Part shown: piece by piece, positions 5,211 through 52,200 of the stretch | Layout: every line of letters starts with the position of its first letter | Position numbering within the stretch: position 1 is the first letter of the stretch | Assembly (NCBI GenBank): GCA_030390025.1 | Contig: JASTWF010000071.1 | Location: 930,001-994,000, forward strand | Length of the DNA stretch: 64,000 bases | Reading direction: 5' to 3' | DNA from: Squalus acanthias | Lineage: Eukaryota | Translations under genes and position numbers: made by a program | Notes under the pieces: generated by a model | Seen by the model: only the letters and a program-made list of their open reading frames with translations | Told to the model about the DNA's origin: nothing | Database searches by the model: none

Positions 5211-6280
5211 TGCGCACAGACACATGTATACACCCCCAGCTGGTCATAGACTAACGCAGGTACAATATCCTGATAAATGCTCATGCTAATAGGAAAAGTG
5301 CGCAGATTCTCACAGTGAATCGTATTGGCACAGTATGTTGGCTCTTGCCTTCAGACACTGGGTTTCCCAGTGAGTTGCTGATTTCTCCACCAGCCCGTCA
5401 CAGTAAAACATTCCACATTTTGTCACTTCCTACAGAAAACCCCCGGTTCTCCTTAAAGGTCCAAGCTCTTTACAGGAGAATACCTTTAACTACCTTTTTC
5501 CAGCATCAGATGCCGCTTCTCTTTAAACCCCGCATACTTTCTGACCATGTGGCATTTCCTATTTGGCATGCGAGCGGCGAGAAAGTTCCCAGCGTTTTTT
5601 TTTTTGCGAGGTTCTCAGCCCTGTTGGGAACAGGGGATGCTGGAAATGTGGAGCAGGGCAGTCAGCAGGTGAAAGAGAAACATTGGGGAGTGGGGGGCGC
5701 GGAGGGCGAAGGCTTTCAACTTTGACTTTTCGTCAGAACCTCTCTGATGCTGTCTGACCTGCTGTACTCTTCCAACATTTTCTGCTTTAATTTCAGGTTT
5801 CTGCCATTCACTGGGGGAAGAGGGGGGCGGTTACATCAATGCAGTGGTTTTATGACTATTTTGGCGACATGGCTGGGGGGAATTTGCTGCTATATTTCCC
5901 TGCTTCCGACAATTTAAAATAATCAACCAAATGATGTCAGTAATCGAGTGTTGGCCTTAAAGCAGTGGGTGATTAGGGCAGTGAAGTATATGTATTGGCT
6001 CATTAGGGAAATAAACATGAATATCACCTCCCGGGTTAATCCAATTTTAGACAAGGAACTACTGGTTGCGATACGAGCTTTCAAATACTTAATGCATTTA
6101 CATGGCATCCCGTTGCCCACTATTTTAACAGAGGCGTTAACCCATTTAAAATATGTGTTAACTCCCCTGCAGGTAAGGGAATCAAACATGAACGCATTTA
6201 GCATTCATGAACAGTGATTTCTAGGCTTGAGTATTTTTGAGACTTCCTGTTGGTCACTTCTATTTCATGTTGTCGCGATT

Positions 6281-17545: not shown

Positions 17546-17557
17546 ACTAATAAATCC

Positions 17558-18088
17558 GAAGTCGCACAACACCAGGTTATAGTACAACAGTTTTATTTGA
17601 AATCACAAGCTTTCGGAGCGCTGCTCCTTCGTCAGGTAAAGTGAAGGAATACAAATCAGCAAAGCATATATAGAGAGAACAATGTGTAGCGTACAATGTC
17701 AGACGACTACAGTAAATCTTTCTGACTGCCCTCCATCACTCCTCGGCAGAGATACAATCAGGTCAGTCAGGAAGGCATTACATCAAAGACACAGCAGAAT
17801 ACAGCTAAGACAATGAGGTGGGGTCACAGGGGGTCCAACGTGTCAAATGCTGCAGTCTGTATGGTTAAGCTTTTTACTTTTTAAAAAAAAACTGGAAATC
17901 ACATCTGTGAACAAGCCAACGACGACTCGAGTCTGGATGACTCTACGTCATGTAGCGTGACATGAAACCAAGATCCCGGTTGAGGCCATCCTCATGAGTG
18001 CGGAACTTGGCTATCAGTTTCTGCTCGATGATTTTGCGTTGTCGTGTGTCTCGCAGCCCGCCTTGGAGAATGGCATCTCCGCATCATG
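17558..18088 (-). mobile_element. Truncated Penelope-like retroelement (GIY-YIG C-terminal remnant plus terminal repeat with hammerhead ribozyme)
   Basis: Minus strand 18071-17943 encodes ILQGGLRDTRQRKIIEQKLIAKFRTHEDGLNRDLGFMSRYMT*, an E..I...T...GLN motif like the GIY-YIG end of Penelope-like elements. Hammerhead core at 17603-17639. 12-bp duplication ACTAATAAATCC at 17546-17557 and 18089-18100. Confidence 0.8.
17603..17639 (-). ncRNA. Minimal hammerhead ribozyme motif
   Basis: Minus strand reads UUAC CUGACGA A GGAGC AGC GCUCC GAAA GC UU GUGA: conserved core, 5-bp stem II, palindromic AAGCUU stem III and stem I UUAC/GUGA. Confidence 0.75.
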
Positions 18089-18330
18089 ACTAATAAATCC
18101 AATAGGGAATTCAGAAGAAACCACTTTATCCAGAGAATGTGGAACTCACTACCACAAGGAGTTCAGGTAAATATTATAGATGCATTTAAGGGGAAGCTAA
18201 ATATACACGAGGGAGAAAGGAAGATGCTGATGGGGTTAGATGAAGAGGGTGGGGAGGAGGCTCACGTGGAACATAAACACCGGCATGGACTAATTGGGCC
18301 GAATGGCCTGTTTCTGTGCTGTATATTGTA
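18089..18330 (+). mobile_element. CR1 LINE 3' end (right half of the element starting at ~16005)
   Basis: NKSNREFRRNHFIQRMWNSLPQ...IIDAFKGKL, then tail GGGCCGAATGGCCTGTTTCTGTGCTGTA. Confidence 0.85.
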
Positions 18331-18875
18331 CGTGATACCGAGCGAACTCGCTGATCTTGAAATAGTGCTGCACATCCACCAGAAGAGGCAGGTGGGCTTT
18401 CACTTTAATCGCCACTTTCAGATTTTTTTTCTAGCATTAATTCATTATAACGTATATCCATCATATGTGGGTCAGAAGGCCTCTTTGAAGGGAAGAAAAT
18501 GGAAGGACAAAAAACAATAACTCTCAGGACATATGCAAACCCATTCCTGTAACCCACAAGTGTACATGAGCTTTACATAGCACCCACTCCTGCAAACATT
18601 GTATCCAAAGAACAGTTACTCCCTCAGGTCTACACTGCAATGTTGGCCAAGACTATTGGCTCAAGTCTTAGAGAGGGGCTTGAACCCACAACCTTCTGAC
18701 TCAGAGCAATGAGTCCTACCAACTGTTATCCAGCTGTTAGTGAATAATTCGGACAAAGGGTCTCCACCTGAAATACCAACTCATTTTGCGCTTTCATTTT
18801 TTAAATATATTTCCAGCATTTTGTGTTTCTATTTCAGATTTGTGACATTCCTAAGCTTTCTCTAATCGCCTCTAC

Positions 18876-20840: not shown

Positions 20841-22122
20841 ACATGGTCAAAGGGGCAGGAGGTAGATGAGGAACTTGCAAGGAAACAGGAAAACTACCAA
20901 GAACCATCTACAGCAACACTGAAAATTTTCAGTCTTATTAGTGAAGGGGAAAAAGAACACCAGCTTATAATGCAAAAGTAAAAAGTTAAGATATTGAACC
21001 TTAGAAACAAGTCACGGATATGCGTATTATTGAATGTTTAGGCTAATGTGAAAGCAACTAATGCAACCTGAATTTTTTTTTTTTTAAAGCCATGCAGATC
21101 ACAAGGTCCCAGGTTTGATCCCCAGTCTATGTTGAGTTAACAGACCTCAATTGGGCAGTGCAACCGGCTTCAGCACCGTGGGCTGGTGAGAAGGAAGAGG
21201 TTGGGGAAACAGAACTAAGGTTGCTGATTCGGATCGCTGTCTGGTGATCCCCTGCTGGACAGTGCGGGTGCGCGCACGTCCAATGAGGAAAGGACCATCC
21301 GCAGGTGATAGCTTCCGTGGTAATAGCCTGTTGACACTCACACAGAGAATGGCCACGTGGCTGAGGTACCAGAGAGTTTGGTGGGGGGGGGGGGGGTGGG
21401 GTGTGAGGAGTGGTACCCACCATCTCAGCACTTTCAGGAAAGGAGGGGAAAAAATACCATCTCAATTTATTTCACAGCTCTCAGTGGACATTTTTTGGTG
21501 ATTGTTTATTACAAAACACATGCAAACCTATTCTGCTAATGGCACATCCTGTGTTACATGCAAACCTACATTGTACTAATTTTGGTTCTCTTACAAACAC
21601 TCTGCTAATGGCACATCCTGTGTTCGCAGAAGGACATCAAGTACCCGAGTACCCATGGTAACTCGATTGTTTTCTCTACTACGGATGGCCCCATGGGATA
21701 ACTAACATTGACGCAATGGCAAAAATGAGTAGTTTTCTAGAGAGCGAGATGGTGTTAAAATCCCCTTAGCAACAGCTGCAATCATTGCCAATTTACAACT
21801 TACACCTTGGGAAACCTCAGCAGAGAAAATTATTAATAGTTTCTAGCCCCCAAAAACCTGGGAAGGGAATGGTTAGCAACAGCGGTGCAAATGATTTAAG
21901 GCTAAGGTGAAGCCGAGGGTTAAATCTCCAGGAAGCAAAGATGGGAATACCAGAGTAGCAATCGCCATTACAGAGCATCGCAATCAACCCCAACTCCTCG
22001 TCTTTGTGGTAACTTTGGTGTCTCTAAGAAAGGTATACAGAAATCTCCAATTATGGTGCAGACAGACTGTCAAGAAGGTGCAGTGCAGATTCACCAGAAT
22101 GATACCTGGGCTAAATTATGAG

Positions 22123-22496
22123 AGGTCGCACAACACCAGGTTATAGTCCAACAGTTTTATTTGAAATCACAAGCTTTCGGAGCTATCGATTTGCTCCTTC
22201 CTCAGGTGAAGTAAATTAGATACAGAATCTCCAAAGCATATATAGATGGAAAACAAAGAATGTGTACTTTACAATTGCAGACCAATAAATTAAATCATCC
22301 TGACTATCTGCCGAGGTGTGATAAAGCTAATGCTTTGGAGATTCTGTATCTAATTTACTTCACCTGAGGAAGGAGCAAATCGATAGCTCCGAAAGCTTGT
22401 GATTTCAAATAAAACTGTTGGACTATAACCTGGTGTTGTGCGACCTCTCAATTTTGTCCACCCCAGTCCAACACCGGCATCTCCGCATCATGACCA
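22123..22496. mobile_element. Penelope-like terminal-repeat insertion forming a perfect 121-bp inverted repeat
   Basis: Arms 22119-22239 and 22330-22450 are exact reverse complements and belong to the same family as 17558-17640. 12-bp duplication CTAAATTATGAG at 22111-22122 and 22497-22508. Confidence 0.85.
22360..22402 (+). ncRNA. Minimal hammerhead ribozyme motif (mirror copy on - strand at 22167-22209)
   Basis: UCAC CUGAGGA A GGAGC AAAUCGAUA GCUCC GAAA GC UU GUGA. Confidence 0.75.
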
Positions 22497-23138
22497 CTAA
22501 ATTATGAGGACAGGTTGCAGAAACTAGGTTTGAAGATTGAGGTGTTTATGATGATTAAAGGATTCAATAGGGTAGATAGAAACTATTTCTTCTCGTGGGA
22601 AGAAATTAGGACAAGGCAGCATCATAAAATTAGAGTCAGGCCATTCAGGGGTGATGTCAGGAATCTCAAAGAGTGGTGGAAACTTGGAACTCTTCCCCCA
22701 AATAGCTGTTGAGGCTAGATCAATTGGAAATTTCAAAATTGAGTGATTGATTATTGTTAGGTAAGGGTATTGAGGGTTACAGAGCTAAAGCAGGTAAATT
22801 GAGTTAAGATACAGATCAGCTGTGATCTAATTGAATGGCGGAACAGGCTCGAGGGGCTGAACGGCCTCCTCCTGTTCCTATGTTCTAAGTACCCTCTATG
22901 TTCTAATGCTATAATGTTGAATATGCACAGCAGTTTTTTTTTTTATAAACACAGCAACCAATATTTTCCTGATCCCAGCCATGCAAAACCACTTCATGAA
23001 GCGCCTCCGATTCCTTCTGCAACAGAAACTGCCCATTTACATTGGACATTAGAATAGAAAAGCTACACGCAAATAGGTTGCCGCTCGCAGTTTTGAAGCT
23101 GCAATTTGCAAATTTATTGCCGGTTGTCATGCCTTTCT

Positions 23139-23493
23139 CAGTGCTGTCCAATACCGTAGCCACTAGCCATGTGTGGCTATAATTGGGAATCCAGATGTGG
23201 CTAATGGCATTTCCAATTTGAAAATAAAATCCTTAGGCATGTGATCTCAATACTCGTTCGTATGCATGTGTTTGTGTGTACTTCAACCTTTGTAAAAAGG
23301 AGACCCCTAAAGCAGTGTACGAGTGCTCTTTCATTGTTATGAGTGCTTTAATTCCTTGGTTACTGAATGGTGATACATGTTGGTTAAGTAAAGATACACA
23401 TGTATTATCAGCATCGGTATCATTGGCATGTATAGAGTTTTCCACTAAAATTAGTGCATGTGGCTAGTCAGAAATTTCTATTGGACAATACTG
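23139..23493. mobile_element. hAT-Charlie-like non-autonomous DNA transposon (MER3/MER33-like)
   Basis: TIRs CAGTGCTGTCCAATA / TATTGGACAATACTG with subterminal GTAGCCACTAGCCA..TGTGGCTA repeats. No clear TSD remains. Confidence 0.7.
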
Positions 23494-23502
23494 GTATATG
23501 AG

Positions 23503-23983
23503 GGTCTCGGTAGCATAGTGGTTATGTTACTGGACTAGTAATCCAGAGGCCTGGACTAAGGATCCAGAGGCGCGAGTTCAAATTCCACCATGGCAGCTGG
23601 GGAATTTAAATTCAGTTAATTAAATAAATCTTGGGGGGGGGGGGGGGGGCGGAGAGAAAACACTAGTCTCAGTAAAGATGGCCATGTTGTAAAAACCCAT
23701 CTAGTTCACTAATGCCCTTTAGGGAAGGAAACCTGCCGACTTACCCGGTCTGGCCTATGTGACTCCAGACCCACAGCAATGTGGTTGACTCTTAACCGCC
23801 CTCAAATGGCCCAGCAAGCCACTCAGTTGTATCAAATCGCTACGAAAAACAATACCTTCACCACACAGGACTGCAGCGGTTCAAGGCGGCGGCTCATCAC
23901 CACCTTCACAAGGACAATTAGGGGATGGGCAATAAATGCTGGTCTTGCCAGCGACGCCCACATCCCAGGAACGAATAAAATAA
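23503..23983 (+). mobile_element. tRNA-derived SINE with a 3' tail shared with the LINE at 48200-49240
   Basis: A-box-like TAGCATAGTGG and B-box GAGTTCAAATTCC. Tail CACCACCTTC...CAATTAGGGGATGGGCAATAAATGCTGG...CGCCCACATCCC..GAATAAAA. Confidence 0.75.
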
Positions 23984-25569
23984 AAGATCAAGTGGGAAAA
24001 CTGTTTGACTGGCCTTTACAGGCAGGCTGTGCTGCAACGCCTGGGAATAAGAGTTGGTGCTACCTCTGGAGGCATCCACAGTGATCATCTCTTTTCATTA
24101 GCCTCAGAATCTCCAGAGACAGCAACGCTGCCTCATTTACTTTACCAAGCTGACACCAACCTGTGCTTGCCGTCAGTGGCCTCTGCGGTAACGTGAACAG
24201 AGTAATAAATGGCTCAGAAGAGCACCAGTCCGAGCAAGATTCGCCTCGAGTTCCTGAATGGCTGTCCAAAATTATTAATGAAATTTCCTTCAACTCTAGC
24301 ATGGCCCGGTGCCTCTCCAATCTAATAAGTGAAGGCCTGTTCAATCATTTTGGTTGGAAGCACCGCCTGCACTTGCAAACGAGGCTTTACTGATCCCACT
24401 GATGAAGATATGCTATCAAGACAACGAGAGAGAAAGAAACAAAAACAAAACACGCATTATTCATTCCAGCTCCATCCACCAGTTTATTTTGTTTTGTCAC
24501 CATTTGGTATTCATTGAACGCTGTGCAATTTTACGAGATCATGGCAGCACGTGATTGTAAACAGCTGACAGGACAGACAGGCGCTGAAGAGGGGGGGGGG
24601 GGAAACAACTGGCAATGTTTGGTCACCTCTGGAAAGACGTCTGATAAAAAAATACAATGATCCTATTTCAAAAAATTTTAAGACACGATTGTTTGGTCAC
24701 AGACACTGGAAGGAATACAAAAGCTGGGTTTGACTCAAGTGCAATAAAGGTGCAACTGGGGACTCCTGGGTGTGTGCTTGAATCAGATTTGCCTCGATAG
24801 ACTGGTTGGGAGGGAAGAGGGACAGTAAGCCATGTGGGAAGCACAATTGAGCAGCAAATCAACGAGACCAAAACCCACTAGGCTGTAAGATCAGAGCGTT
24901 AACTGCTACACAAGGCAACCCATTTATTACAAATTCTCAAGTGGTATATACCTTCTGGGTACCACTGTCATTATAGAAGAACAAAGAGGCAAAAAAAAAC
25001 TCAGATATTTGCCTCTCGGAAGAAAAAAAACCCCCTGGAAATCGGTTCCACTCTGCCTGAATCCAGCCAGCTGAGTACTGAGCGACACTGACATTTGTTA
25101 GAGAAACCTGTCACCCAAACTGCCAAGGTCTCCCATCGAGGGAGGACTGCGAGGTTCCGAGCGTTTACAAAAAGAGAGCAATTGTGCGGGGGGTGGGGGT
25201 GGGGGGGGGGGGGGGTGAGTAAAATAACTGTCAAAACAAAATTTTAGCAAAGACATTAGTTGGTTATGATATCATTTCAGTACTTTCACATTTAGGATTT
25301 TTCTAACATTAATATTTTGTGGGACCTGCCTTCTTGGGGGGGGGGGAGGGAGGGAGAGGGAGGCAGTGAGAGAGAAGAAAGGAAGAACATTCTTCATAAA
25401 CTATGACTAGGTTGAGGAAGCAGCATGCACACAATCTCGAGCCCAGACCTGAACTAGATTTTTTTTTTTTTAAATGTGACTTACGACTCCTTCACAGGAA
25501 CACCGATAGCCAACTGCACACACAGCAGTGCCAATCAGCCCCATTGATTTTCTCCTCTAAACTTTATAA

Positions 25570-25930
25570 TCAAGTCTTAGAAAATTTCAACTTTATTTCA
25601 CTGAAGCATAGCATATTGGCTGAGATTGGGTACTGAGCTGAGCCACTGCTTCGTAGATCTGGGAAGTGGAGGGGAGAAGAGAAGAGAACTACTGCGTCAT
25701 TAAAGACAAGAGATTTGTGATTTAGTGCCAAGTGACCAGTGATGGAGGGGGGGCTCACCAGATGTTCTGGGAACAAAGGGCACCATTTTGGAAAACTGCC
25801 CATTGGGGAGGGCTTCAATTTAAAAAAAAAGGAAACTAGTCCGAAGGAAAAAGGTGCCTGCTGGGTTAACAGTGCTGCAGGCCCCACCAAATTCATCTTG
25901 TCTGTTTCTTCACAAAGAGGTTCCATCAAC
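25570..25930 (-). other. PRKCSH: Putative non-coding terminal exon of PRKCSH
   Basis: Strong minus-strand acceptor TTTTTCTTTCCTGTGTAG|GTTGATGG at 25931, matching the donor 24 nt after the stop codon. AATAAA (plus TTTATT) at 25592-25597. The 3' end is approximate. Confidence 0.55.
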
Positions 25931-26299
25931 CTACACAGGAAAGAAAAAATATCATTCAGAAATCAATGCAGAAGAAATTAGAATTGTTTTTCTTTAAAAA
26001 CTTGTCTAAATTGGTTTGTTCCCATCATCCAGTGCACACTGTCTTCCCCAGTTGGCAGGATCAGATGCTAATCTGTCCAAGGCTGCTCAAGCCAGCCAGG
26101 TAGGTGTGACACCGACAGTGGCTGCCACATGTGCAGATTTTTCCCTGCCTCCCTCCATTTGGGGCGGTCCGTAGTGCATCCCTTAAAATGGAATGGCCAG
26201 GATTGGGAATACTGGGAAATTGGGTACATCAGCATAGACCTGCATCCTACATTTTGCAAGACATTTCAGTGAAGAGTCTACGCTACATCCAACTACAAG

Positions 26300-26445
26300 T
26301 CCCATTCTGACGAAAGGTCATCGACCTGAAACGTTAACGGTTTCTCTCTCCACAGATGCTGCCTGACCTGCTGAGTATTTCCAGCATTTTGTTTTTAATT
26401 TCAGATTTCCAGCATCCGCAGTATTTTGCTTTTGTACAAGTACAG
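26300..26445 (+). mobile_element. Penelope-like terminal-repeat remnant (second family) with hammerhead motif at 26305-26338
   Basis: UU CUGACGA A AGGUC AUC GACCU GAAA CG UU AA followed by CTCTCCACAGATGCTGCCTGACCTGCTGAGTATTTCCAGCATTTT. Degenerate copies at ~5740, 18750, 30040-30160, 31550 and 49630-49780. Confidence 0.7.
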
Positions 26446-27094
26446 TTCATGTGCCCAATAGCCTTCTCTCATTTCATACCTTATGCTCTTGTAGTCCACT
26501 TATCCATTAAGAATTTCAGATTCGAAGCAGTGTTACATAACTGAAAGATCATATACTGAATTTAATATGTATAATCCTTTACTCTCTCTGTTCCCTGAAT
26601 ACCAGGCTGAGTATCAGGCAAGTGGCTGCTTCACACCCTTTGGCCTATGCAACTCTTTGGCCAATTAAGTTACGAGAACAGATCAGAAATGCAGTCACTC
26701 AGGTCTCCCCATTGCGCACAGTCTGAAAGTACACGATAGTGTTTCCCCACTATAACAGGTGATATCTGTAGCATGCTTAGCAGTTGTTAAGCAGAATGCC
26801 ATCAGTACATACAGCATGAAAGCACTCTCGCTTTCCCTCCTACTTCCCCATTGTTTCCCCTGCCATCCATCATTTGAGGCAGATAATGGTGACCTGCTCC
26901 CATCATGGAGGAAGCCGCATCACTGAATTGCTCTCAAAAGACCAACAGCCTGCTTAACAACAGCAATGACAACGGGGATAAGTACATGAACAAAATGGTC
27001 CTGGGAAGGGAAATGGGTGAGGAAGAACACAGTCGGAATTCAACGTCCGTGCGAGGGGCGCTTGGCTCACCTGTTATGCCCACTTGCCCAATTC

Positions 27095-27235
27095 TCACAG
27101 TTCATCGTGGTCTGAGCCTCCTTCGTCCATTTCCTCCTGGCAAAGGGCTGGTGTTGAAAACTCCATCAGGTATTCACAGCGGCTGGGCTCTGATGTGGAT
27201 AACACAGCAGTCTCTTTGCCACAAGACAACTTAAC
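27095..27235 (-). CDS. PRKCSH: PRKCSH last coding exon (MRH domain end plus HDEL)
   Basis: AG|VKLSCGKETAVLSTSEPSRCEYLMEFSTPALCQEEMDEGGSDHDEL*TGA. The exon continues 24 nt to a GTGAGC donor at 27070. Confidence 0.96.
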   Translation of the reverse strand, partial: VKLSCGKETAVLSTSEPSRCEYLMEFSTPALCQEEMDEGGSDHDEL

Positions 27236-28090: not shown

Positions 28091-28190
28091 CAAAGTGGAT
28101 CTGTTTGGCCCCTGCCAACAGCCAGTACCATGTTCATACTTCATCATACTAAACTTATTGCTTTCTGGTCCAGCCCAAGAACCCCACAAG
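28091..28190 (-). CDS. PRKCSH: PRKCSH coding exon (MRH domain)
   Basis: AG|(G)LWGSWAGPESNKFSMMKYEHGTGCWQGPNRSTL|GTAAGT, 100 nt. Confidence 0.96.
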
Positions 28191-28267
28191 CTGCAAGCAC
28201 ACAAAAAAAAAAGCTATTAATACATTCCAACAACATAAGTGTGCTTGTTGCAAAATGAACTAAATTA

Positions 28268-31289: not shown

Positions 31290-31670
31290 CATTGCCAGAT
31301 TTTGCATGCTCTCCCACCACCCCCCGCTGTGACCATTTATACCTCCTCTGCTCCCATCTTTTCTTTCTTTACTTGTCCCACTAATGCCCGCTTTTGTCTT
31401 GCACCATCATCCCTTTTGTCATTTTAAATCACTCCTGCCCTCCACCTGATCAGAGCTTGCTCTTTTGTTCTTTCCCTGCTCCCACCAATCCCCACCCTCT
31501 TTGACTTGGACCTGCTATTGTTTAAAAGCTGTTCATCTCCAACATCTTCCAGAAAGATCGACTTGAAGCGTCAACTCTGTTTCTCTCTCCAGAGGCTGCC
31601 TGACCTGCTGAGTGTTTCCAGCAGTTTGTTTTTATTTCAGATTTCCAGCATCCGCAGGTACCTTGCTTCG
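31290..31670 (+). mobile_element. Decayed Penelope-like 3' region and terminal repeat (same family as 26300)
   Basis: Pyrimidine-rich body, then GATCGACTTGAAGCGTCAACTCTGTTTCTCTCTCCAGAGGCTGCCTGACCTGCTGAGTGTTTCCAGCA. The ribozyme core is broken. Confidence 0.6.
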
Positions 31671-35644: not shown

Positions 35645-35826
35645 NNNNNNNNNNNNNNNNNNNNNNNNNNNNNNNNNNNNNNNNNNNNNNNNNNNNNNNN
35701 NNNNNNNNNNNNNNNNNNNNNNNNNNNNNNNNNNNNNNNNNNNNNNNNNNNNNNNNNNNNNNNNNNNNNNNNNNNNNNNNNNNNNNNNNNNNNNNNNNNN
35801 NNNNNNNNNNNNNNNNNNNNNNNNNN
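35645..35826. other. Assembly gap (182 N)
   Basis: Run of n characters, preceded by G/GA-rich low-complexity sequence. Confidence 1.
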
Positions 35827-49240: not shown

Positions 49241-52200
49241 AAAATCAAGCTGGTCAGCAAGTGGGTACCTAGAGTCCCACAGTATTCACCAGTAAGCATT
49301 ATCTTGGTTTCAAACAAGAAATGACATATGGACTTGAAACCCAGCTTTACTTAGACGATCTATTATGCATTACAGCATAAGGCTATATAAAAGCAGCAAG
49401 CAACCGGATATGAAATCTGCAATGAGTAAAATTATTCATACACCTAACCGAGTGCAGAACACCAGCTAAAAGGCAAAAATTACACCTGGCACACGTCTAG
49501 CTCAATGTCAATTATTGTACACTGATATTATATAAATTGGTCATGGTGTATGCTGCCCACACATGGAGCGGAAAATTGTGGAAAAGGTAGATTGCGCATG
49601 CAGCACAAGGAGCTAGTATAAATATGCTTGAAATAAAAACGGGGAATGCTCAGCAAGTCAATCAGCATCTGAACGAGAAAGACAAGTTAAGGTTCCGGGT
49701 GCCACACTTAATCAGAACTCTCCTGGGCATTTCGAGGAATGTGTTTGCTTCAGACTTCCAGCATTCACAGTTCTTCCTTCTGTCCCAGTTAATTTGTGCA
49801 ACGTTTTCATTTGGGTGTAGCAGCAGCTTCGTAAATAGCATGTCTCCAAAGCAAAGGCTATTTGTGCCCGCTGCTTCCGTGCAATCCATAAATGCATAGA
49901 CGCCAACTGTCGCCGTTTACGTGTCTTGCCCTGTACGTGTCGGGGTGCAAGGCAGCACCCAAGTACAAAAAAAACACACACACACGCTACTTAATCTGCA
50001 TTTCCCTCACCTAAAAGCAGCTTTAGTTGGGATGAAACCCGAACCCAGAATGCAGCCCAGCCAACAGGTCTCAACCTGCCGCAACCCTGGTTTCATTTTG
50101 TATTTGCGTCGTGTAAACAAGCATCAGACACCCATATGAATTAAATGGCGACACACCTGCGAATTATAAAGAGCGAGGCAGTTGTAAATAAAGTGGCGAC
50201 GCACCTGCTCGCTCCTCTTGGAAGCATGAACATTTATCACGGGTATAACTAAAATAAGTAGACAACTTGCAGCCCCCAATGGTGATCCTGTAGGATTTCA
50301 CCTTGTGTTTTGTTTCTATAATTGCAGGGACGTGCCCCAATGGAAATTGACACTTAACGTTTGATGAATTGTCAGATGGCATCTAAATCGCTGTTGTGAC
50401 TGTTGCTACCCAAAGGGGATTTTTTATTTTAACGATGCGGTTTTCACTTCTAAAAACAAGTCAAAGCGCTATCCCAATGGCCCATTGAGTAAAAGCACCC
50501 AAGTTTGATATCTCTGTTGTTGACCTCAGCCAGAGCAACAATTGGGGCACCGCAATTAGCATCAGTGCCAGTCGGCGAAGACAAGAGAAACAAAAGTATT
50601 GTGCAATGAACCTAAGTGCACGTGGATGTCAAGCAAGGCCAGGTTAGGCTCGGCTGTGATGCCTCCAGCAGTTAAATAACCTGCTGTCAATGGCTGGGTA
50701 GGCTTGTACATGAAAAAAATGGCTGTAGCGAGGCTGCAACTCCTTATGGAACAATACTCCAGCATGAGTCAGCAGGGGGAGAAAAAATAAAGAACAAAGA
50801 GCGTGTTACGCCAGTCCCAAAATAAAAAAATAACTGCTGGAACCTCCATTTATCTGCACTCCAATTGTCCACCATTCTGTATTTACTTTTACAGGGTTTT
50901 TTTGCATATTGTAGCCTCATATTCACTATTTGTGCCGTACTGACTTCATTCCCACCACTAGAGTATCGCTGTACCATATATGCAAGCTGAAAATTTGGGA
51001 ACTCTCCGGTTTCCAGCAATTCCCGTTATTCACCAAAAGGTCTCTTCCATTATGGCTGATAATTGAGGTTCCACTTTAAAACTGACAAGCTTTGTTTCCT
51101 TGCAAATAATTCACTTTGTATCATTCTATAAATCTCTCTGATGTCAGTGTTTATATGCAACAGATCACTAACCAGGCAGACCGGGAAATGCACCCTCTGC
51201 TTAGACTACCGCAAGGTTAAGAATGCATTTCCAAGCAGTCCAAAATATTATTATTTTTTTTTTTTTTTAATATCGGCTTCAAACCCATTTCATTATTACA
51301 CCCACTTTAATTTCATATCGTTAGTCTGACTACCACTTTCACATAACCCAAGAATAAATGGGGCTCTCCCACAGACGCAGGAGAGCTTCAGTCACCATCA
51401 GAGACAGAAAGGTCCCAGATTTGGTTCCTCGTTTGTGCCGAGGGGTCTGACTCAGCCTGGATGGTGAAAGACTCGCTGCAAGTTGGCCGCAGCACCACGG
51501 ACATGGGGAAGGGGGGAAATGGCCCTCTTTCCTACTCCAGACCACTGTTCAGGAATCCCTGGTGGAAGTGGCTTGTATGGATACTGGCTGAGGGCAGCAC
51601 CAGGTTCAGTACTGATGCCCTCTGCTGACACTCCACTGAAGTTGTGCACAATGACCAATTACACAAGGTATCAGAGGGCGACAGTCACTTGTGCACGGTA
51701 AGGAGAGGAAGAGAAAATGAGAGAAATATACTTTTGCGGGGAACATGAAAATATTGCTAGCTGGGTATAAAGCACACTTTTTTTTTAAAGATCTGTGTAC
51801 AAGTGCACAATTCTGTATTCTTACTTTCAAGTAATATACCAACACGAGAACTGAGCATACCACTGGGATGAATTGAGGGCAGAAAATTGACAAGAAAAAG
51901 AAAAATGGCAATCAAAAGCAGGCGTGTTGAAACTTCAATTTTTACCTTGCGGACAGGAAGGCTAAAATTTTCATACAATTTGTGTGAATATTCTCGGACG
52001 TTTCCTTTACCATGGTTTATATTGCGCAGAACCAAGAATAAGGCAATGGTCAAGTCAACCAAAGGAGGAATACAATAAAACTTTCATTTATATAGTGCTT
52101 TTAACACAGTAAAAGGTCCCGAGAGAGAGACCGAGGTTTAGGGAAGGAATTGCAGAGCTTAGGGCCTAGGCAACTGCTAATGGTGGAGTGATTAAAATTG

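Follow-up and report, generated by a model that had tools for sequence, protein, structure and literature searches.

The window analysed here, 64,000 nt of the Squalus acanthias contig JASTWF010000071.1, holds the ends of two protein genes. On the plus strand the last exon of an ELAVL-family gene (1479-1850, an RRM exon) ends at position 1850, and on the minus strand the last two coding exons of PRKCSH (28094-28195 and 27095-27235) end at 27095. The two ends are convergent and 25 kb apart, as an earlier sequence-only reading of this DNA had held. Human ELAVL3 presumably has the same neighbor, PRKCSH. An acidic stretch near 57.3 kb on the minus strand is probably a further exon of PRKCSH. Directly upstream of the ELAVL exon, at 1114-1382, an 11-mer recurs four times, every 86 nt, which points to a tandem repeat, and an assembly gap of 182 N is present at 35645-35826.

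Between the two genes, 20.3 kb from the ELAVL stop codon and 4.6 kb from that of PRKCSH, a 398-nt unit (22111-22508) interrupts a CR1 LINE fragment. For the left flank of the unit (22068-22110, plus strand) alignments were obtained with CR1 copies located at 16.7 kb and 56.8 kb, and for the right flank, the CR1 3′ end (22509-22890, plus strand), with copies at 28.6-29.3, 16.3, 0.8 and 54.3 kb. Both flanks align to adjoining positions in one CR1 3′ region. A 12-nt direct repeat with 75% A+T brackets the unit, at 22111-22122 on the left and 22497-22508 on the right (both plus strand), and the duplicated word maps to the same place in CR1; it had been called a 12-bp target site duplication (TSD), and this is borne out. 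By chance a 12-mer was shared at equal spacing in 6 of 20000 random placements. Other CR1 copies have about 9 extra bases immediately to the left of the duplicated word, so that the empty site is one that we infer.

Within the unit, the segments 22119-22239 and 22330-22450 are exact reverse complements, 100% complementary over 121 nt and 90 nt apart. This confirms the perfect 121-bp palindrome reported from the sequence, and the complementarity extends no further on either side. The two arms form the only perfect close inverted repeat within the window. The end of the left TSD overlaps the beginning of the left arm by 4 nt, and the palindrome formed by the element only is accordingly 117 bp. 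The whole unit has a predicted fold of −240 kcal/mol (z = −29.5), equalled by 0 of 100 shuffles, and the predicted hairpin energies on its two strands are −240 and −249 kcal/mol. The longest open frame on either strand does not exceed 50 codons, in agreement with the view that the unit has no coding sequence.

The unit is not symmetric. The 90 nt between the arms had been regarded as a spacer, but separate, independent DNA is rejected here: the segment 22122-22305 aligns unbroken, at 80% identity, with positions 17558-17727 of a second insertion in the window (the sister copy), and thus the left arm simply carries on inward through the spacer. In addition, a tail of 46 nt (22451-22496, plus strand, 65% A+C) lies outside the right arm only, which does not fit a symmetric unit with terminal inverted repeats. 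In the ribozyme sense the order is left TSD, inverted pseudo-LTR (pLTR) piece, sense piece, tail and right TSD. The inverted piece (22119-22329, minus strand, about 211 nt) consists of the left arm and the spacer, is 80% identical to the sister copy and has no tail. The sense piece is the right arm, a 5′-truncated pLTR of 121 nt (22330-22450, plus strand). The 5′ ends of the two pieces abut at the center of the unit, i.e., head to head. A MITE or DNA transposon, which has inverted repeats at both termini around an unrelated core, is rejected on the 46-nt tail outside the right arm and on the core that continues the left arm.

The center is apparently more complex than one flip would make it, as its innermost 16 nt (22307-22322, plus strand) are reversed relative to the sister copy, which they match in opposite orientation at 15 of 16 positions. 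Either a hairpin loop was flipped between subfamilies, or the sense piece in fact begins at this segment and a jump or deletion comes after it; the latter implies that about 70 nt were skipped, and the comparison is between two copies only. With the junction drawn at 22329/22330 microhomology is absent, and a stem of 5 bp with a 4-nt loop (22323-22336) spans it. Further to the right a stem-loop is predicted at 22416-22473 (plus strand), closed by a 9-bp helix (22416-22424/22465-22473), with an energy no better than that of shuffles (z = −0.14); the start point of the inverted copy falls in its apical part. The tail contains an ATG (22490-22492) that may be the start codon of the element.

Both strands of the window were searched for hammerhead motifs, defined as the core plus a stem II of at least 4 bp. 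Four hammerhead-like cores were found, at 22364 (plus), 22205 (minus), 17635 (minus) and 26307 (plus). The first two lie one in each arm, where a minimal hammerhead had been proposed, and the motif is indeed there: both have an extra base, the stem II GGAGC/GCUCC, a 9-nt loop and GAAA. The core at 17635, in the sister copy, has an identical stem II with a loop of 3 nt. The plus strand motif (22360-22402) is a minimal type I hammerhead with a 4-bp stem I and a 5-bp stem II with the 9-nt loop. It comprises the core (22364-22370), the extra A (22371), GAA (22391-22393) and a palindromic AAGCUU, and the predicted cut is after 22398. Its mirror on the minus strand (22167-22209) has a predicted cut after 22171. 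The core C3-A9, the extra base before G10.1, G10.1-C11.1, G12-A14, the palindromic 15.2-16.2 and a short helix I, all features of minimal hammerheads, are present. An Rfam search at E≤1 gave no hammerhead family match anywhere in the window and yielded two microsatellite-driven miRNA matches near 5.2 kb and nothing else; thus the ribozyme call rests on the motif and its context.

As described in the sections of Cervera and De la Pena 2014 (PMC4209133) cited here, minimal hammerheads reside in the end repeats of Penelope-like elements (PLEs), with dual motifs about 100-700 bp apart on opposite strands. The two motifs of the unit, about 160 nt apart on opposite strands, are inside that range. 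They share with metazoan PLE motifs the conserved core, the extra base between 9 and 10.1, G10.1-C11.1, the 4-bp helix I and the palindromic 15.2-16.2 (PMC4209133). They differ in helix II, which is 5 bp with a 9-nt loop as opposed to 7-8 bp in Schistosoma, and in host, as cartilaginous fishes are not named among the hosts in those sections (PMC4209133). The stem II loop regions of the unit and the sister copy (22372-22390 and 17614-17627; 9 versus 3 nt) each contain a 6-nt palindrome, ATCGAT and AGCGCT respectively, which could add to dimer pairing. The predicted self-duplex of 22355-22405 has an energy of −33 kcal/mol.

The sister insertion (17546-18099) lies between a minus strand CR1 RT fragment and a plus strand CR1 3′ end. 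It has an 11-nt TSD (17546-17556/18089-18099), an inverted piece of about 514 nt and a 17-nt sense tail (18072-18088) that is identical to 22476-22492 in the tail of the unit. Both copies present in the window agree, to within 1-4 nt, on the pLTR position where the inverted piece starts; in both, the tail ends at most 5 nt from the common ATG, and the TSD is AT-rich and 11-12 nt long.

The sister insertion also contains, on the minus strand at 17943-18071, the last 42 codons and the stop codon of a Penelope-type RT/GIY-YIG protein. The 42-aa peptide matched 20 of 21 candidates, the named ones being from sharks, and 39 cluster representatives at E≤0.001; one long repetitive match (P0025) was rejected as false. 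The peptide is identical at 38 of 41 positions (93%) to the C-terminus of its best long match, a protein of 643 aa (P0003) that has an RVT_1 domain. The peptide is also 83% identical to a GIY-YIG protein. A second protein (P0005) has a GIY-YIG domain above the Pfam cut-off, a third (P0008) has one just under it, and an 881-aa RT protein (P0026) is a full-length relative with the same C-terminal stretch. RT followed by GIY-YIG, as predicted in these relatives, is the Penelope domain order. The 42-aa peptide alone gave no Pfam GIY-YIG match, and no further pieces of a Penelope-type ORF were found elsewhere in the window. In a search among shorter proteins for a shark protein N-terminus, 0 of 63 candidates scored with residues 1-130 of P0026. 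The RT/GIY-YIG link of the unit is seen via the 80%-identical sister copy only, no full-length DNA copy having been found, and the approximately 215 nt between the sister stop codon and the aligned pLTR are putative element sequence.

A protein-led locus search found no loci in prokaryote genomes and three distant loci in plant metagenomes (29-31% identity), which were excluded from the analysis. Ribozyme-flank and tail patterns had 0 matches in viral contigs, prokaryote genomes and metagenome contigs. Two database isoforms of Heptranchias perlo, named XRCC5 and FAM204A (P0002 and P0015), end in the C-terminus of this Penelope protein family; these are either exonised element ends or gene-prediction artefacts.

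The anatomy of the unit, the end points that it has in common with the sister copy and the link of the sister copy to a Penelope-type protein end are the basis for its identification. The unit is very probably a single, heavily 5′-truncated Penelope-like insertion in CR1, with pLTR pieces head to head, a tail and a 12-nt TSD. The sequence-only reading had pointed to a Penelope-like inverted arrangement with a TSD, and the inverted pLTR, the tail at one end and the 12-nt repeat bear it out. A hammerhead-bearing pLTR, a head-to-head inverted 5′-truncated copy and a short TSD at an AT-rich target, all features of PLE insertions, are present. The tail, at the right end only in both copies, measures 46-50 nt, somewhat over the 30-40 bp that accompany an inverted 5′-truncated copy in the typical PLE structure given in the cited part of Craig et al. 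2021 (PMC8557442).

Insertions of PLEs that are oriented head to head and have palindromes at the junction are described in the cited part of Arkhipova et al. 2013 (PMC3846280). There, Pen2 and Pen2a of Adineta vaga have an inverted pLTR that is shorter than the direct one, a 31-bp tail and TSDs of 8-10 bp. The unit resembles them in its head-to-head inverted pLTR, one-end tail, short TSD and small junction palindrome, and in its insertion into another retroelement. It differs in that nearly all of the element is missing, so that the inverted copies are 90 nt apart, and in its TSD of 12 rather than 8-10 nt (PMC3846280). Thus the unit is a well-preserved example of a described Penelope insertion layout.

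How such a layout arises is less certain. In the parts of Frangieh et al. 2024 (PMC11167929) cited here, both target strands are cut and extended by a Poseidon protein with a preference for ATT, and synthesis begins from two sites, one at each boundary of the tail; the protein is a predicted dimer, and the anole ribozyme cleaves only in its presence. For the Anolis carolinensis element PAc, subtraction of +26 from +111-118 places a start site 85-92 nt past the ribozyme cut (PMC11167929). The ends of the unit are 49-52 nt (inner) and 98 nt (outer) past the predicted cut. Like PAc, the unit has two fixed starts that bound an A+C-rich tail past the ribozyme and an AT-rich target that contains ATT; the PAc ORF starts in ribozyme stem II, whereas the first ATG of the unit is at the end of the tail (PMC11167929). 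Inverted insertions are not derived from two-strand priming in the cited parts of the PAc study (PMC11167929).

On a two-strand priming route, the element endonuclease would make one cut in each strand of an AT-rich target, with a stagger of about 12 nt. Reverse transcription would be primed from the bottom strand at the outer start site, where the tail ends (22496), and from the top strand at the inner one (22447-22450), aided by the 4-nt match, after which the two cDNAs would be joined. The left target strand (22105-22122) is also loosely complementary to the start of the tail (22447-22463) past the 4-nt match, with a 2-nt bulge, and this could have steadied the priming. In the unit, the outer cDNA would have reached a length of 167 nt and passed the inner start, so that 121 nt were copied twice and the palindrome would be the outcome; this double copying would require either a second RNA or a second reading of the same one. 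The sister copy would differ in that its outer cDNA stopped after about 17 nt, leaving halves without overlap and no palindrome. One rule, two-strand priming, would thus cover both copies, and the ribozyme on each strand would be a by-product of the insertion layout. For the unit itself the chances of this route and of all others are about evenly balanced. The broader proposal, that Penelope palindromes form by overlapping twin priming, with cDNA overlap alone setting palindrome versus plain inversion and junction stems marking the joining, is offered tentatively, at somewhat below an even chance. In the literature searched, which included few subscription journals, neither this shark family nor twin priming in PLEs was the subject of any paper found.

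The main competitor concerns the mechanism only and leaves the identity of the element unaffected. An antisense strand may have folded back and self-primed at a natural hairpin of the pLTR; the palindrome would then have been longer at first, and a jump or deletion would later have shortened its right arm on the inner side. The model given for head-to-head PLE inversions in the cited part of PMC3846280 is of this kind, with an antisense template that primes itself. The segment 22307-22322, which compared with the sister copy runs in the sense direction and begins at a predicted hairpin arm, also agrees with it, as do the 5-bp stems that cross the junction in both copies, compared with 3.3% of 20000 random joins. 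The rule for these stems was set post hoc, and they are a lead only. Against fold-back, the sister copy has about 514 nt inverted and 17 nt sense without overlap, which would need a large, precise deletion, and the fixed outer ends match the two start sites seen in vitro (PMC11167929, in the parts cited). Fold-back self-priming is thus rather unlikely, though a distinct possibility.

A functional role at the RNA level was also considered, in which the insertion is a regulatory element: read-through RNA from PRKCSH or ELAVL would form a duplex subject to dicing or editing, or the ribozymes would contribute to transcription termination. The strong hairpin predicted on both strands and the convergent genes are in keeping with such a role, and in transgenic Drosophila siRNAs matched inverted Penelope regions (PMC3681739, in the part cited). 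That read-through RNA would fold into a 121-bp duplex and bury the ribozyme, as had been suggested, is supported by prediction: the pairing probability of stem II is 0 in the whole unit versus 0.95 in a single arm with the tail, where that of stem I is about 0.3. A nascent read-through duplex could be open to Dicer or ADAR, as with any inverted repeat, and with the Drosophila precedent (PMC3681739) dsRNA or siRNA from the unit would not be new in kind.

Other observations speak against a regulatory role. Each strand of the unit has one hammerhead, in a head-to-head arrangement, and on either strand the antisense arm is transcribed ahead of the sense ribozyme, with stem II predicted to be lost. 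In the cited sections of PMC4209133 a single minimal motif had no detectable cleavage in vitro, and dimers had little; the anole motif was cleaved only with protein (PMC11167929). Both motifs are therefore predicted to be silent in the unit, because a same-strand partner is needed and transcription always passes through the complementary arm before it reaches the motif. For the same reasons, with one motif per transcript, the bidirectional terminator of the sequence-only reading is unlikely and is rejected here. Downstream of the PRKCSH stop codon, the minus strand of 23300-27100 has 3 AATAAA and 3 ATTAAA, and the plus strand after the ELAVL stop codon has 13 AATAAA and 6 ATTAAA; these are common words, and they weakly suggest that mature PRKCSH and ELAVL RNAs end before the unit. 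There is no sign of selection. A regulatory function of the insertion is very improbable.

It is highly improbable that the unit belongs to a dedicated non-autonomous palindromic ribozyme element, retrozyme- or MITE-like, that is amplified as a unit. The unit has no coding capacity, and non-autonomous PLE derivatives are known in vertebrates (bioRxiv 10.64898/2026.07.22.740005, in the part cited). Non-LTR retrozymes are, like the unit, non-coding, PLE-derived and intergenic, with type I hammerheads; in contrast, they are defined by head-to-tail tandem ribozymes on the same strand, and the unit has one per strand, head to head (bioRxiv 10.64898/2026.07.22.740005). With no same-strand tandem units a non-LTR retrozyme is rejected. 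In addition, the tail flanks just one of the arms, the other arm runs on into the spacer, the sole sister copy has a different center and ORF sequence, and the window contains no second perfect close inverted repeat. The non-autonomous, ribozyme-only class that had been proposed thus gives way to a simpler reading, a 5′-truncated copy of an ORF-bearing family whose sister copy reaches the protein C-terminus. An assembly or sequencing artefact, such as a fold-back chimera, would account for arms that are 100% identical, but with a TSD at both ends, a CR1 register kept across the insertion, a one-sided tail and an inverted piece that starts at the same base as in the 80%-identical sister copy, it is hardly credible. 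Of 24 sequencing runs listed as matching 21300-23500, 5, from 2 studies, contained 0.58 of the sequence words of that stretch, and no RNA run was among those listed; such word sharing does not bear on the inversion, on presence or absence of the insertion, or on expression.

The age of the Penelope-like insertion is bounded loosely. The arms show 0 differences in 121 columns, which gives a 95% upper bound on divergence of 2.45%. At the epaulette shark rate of 7e-10 per base per generation (PMC10587355, in the part cited), a rate of another species, this corresponds to up to 17.5 million generations, or 8.7-87.5 million over the published interval. The sequence would allow a recent insertion. 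The unit had been called very young, and this is not borne out, as 0 of 121 differences only bounds divergence below about 2.5%, or up to about 17 million generations. Furthermore, arm-to-arm repair could keep the arms equal. A caution follows for sharks: perfect arms do not mean a recent insertion, and a ribozyme on each strand does not mean a terminator.

As a single locus the unit matters little, since Penelope-like insertions are already characterized in print by this layout; its value is that of a clean worked example. Together with the sister copy it fits the 2024 in vitro result, in which both strands are cut and extended from two start sites, and the two copies suggest a countable, genome-wide test of how inverted ends form. 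If twin priming is true, shark genomes would be a large natural record with which to decide how Penelope elements finish integration, set against the printed model of antisense self-priming.

Two further repeats in the window should be mentioned. A diverged close inverted repeat at 18619-18706/19155-19243 (79% over 89 nt) is probably two dispersed repeats in opposite orientation. The fourth hammerhead core belongs to a minimal motif at 26307-26345 (plus strand), in a different repeat family, with a 5-bp stem II and a palindromic AACGUU; it lies 0.75 kb past the PRKCSH stop codon, on the opposite strand. Relatives of this repeat at 31557-31668, 5746-5801, 18808-18841 and 49642-49783 had no match in the core scan.
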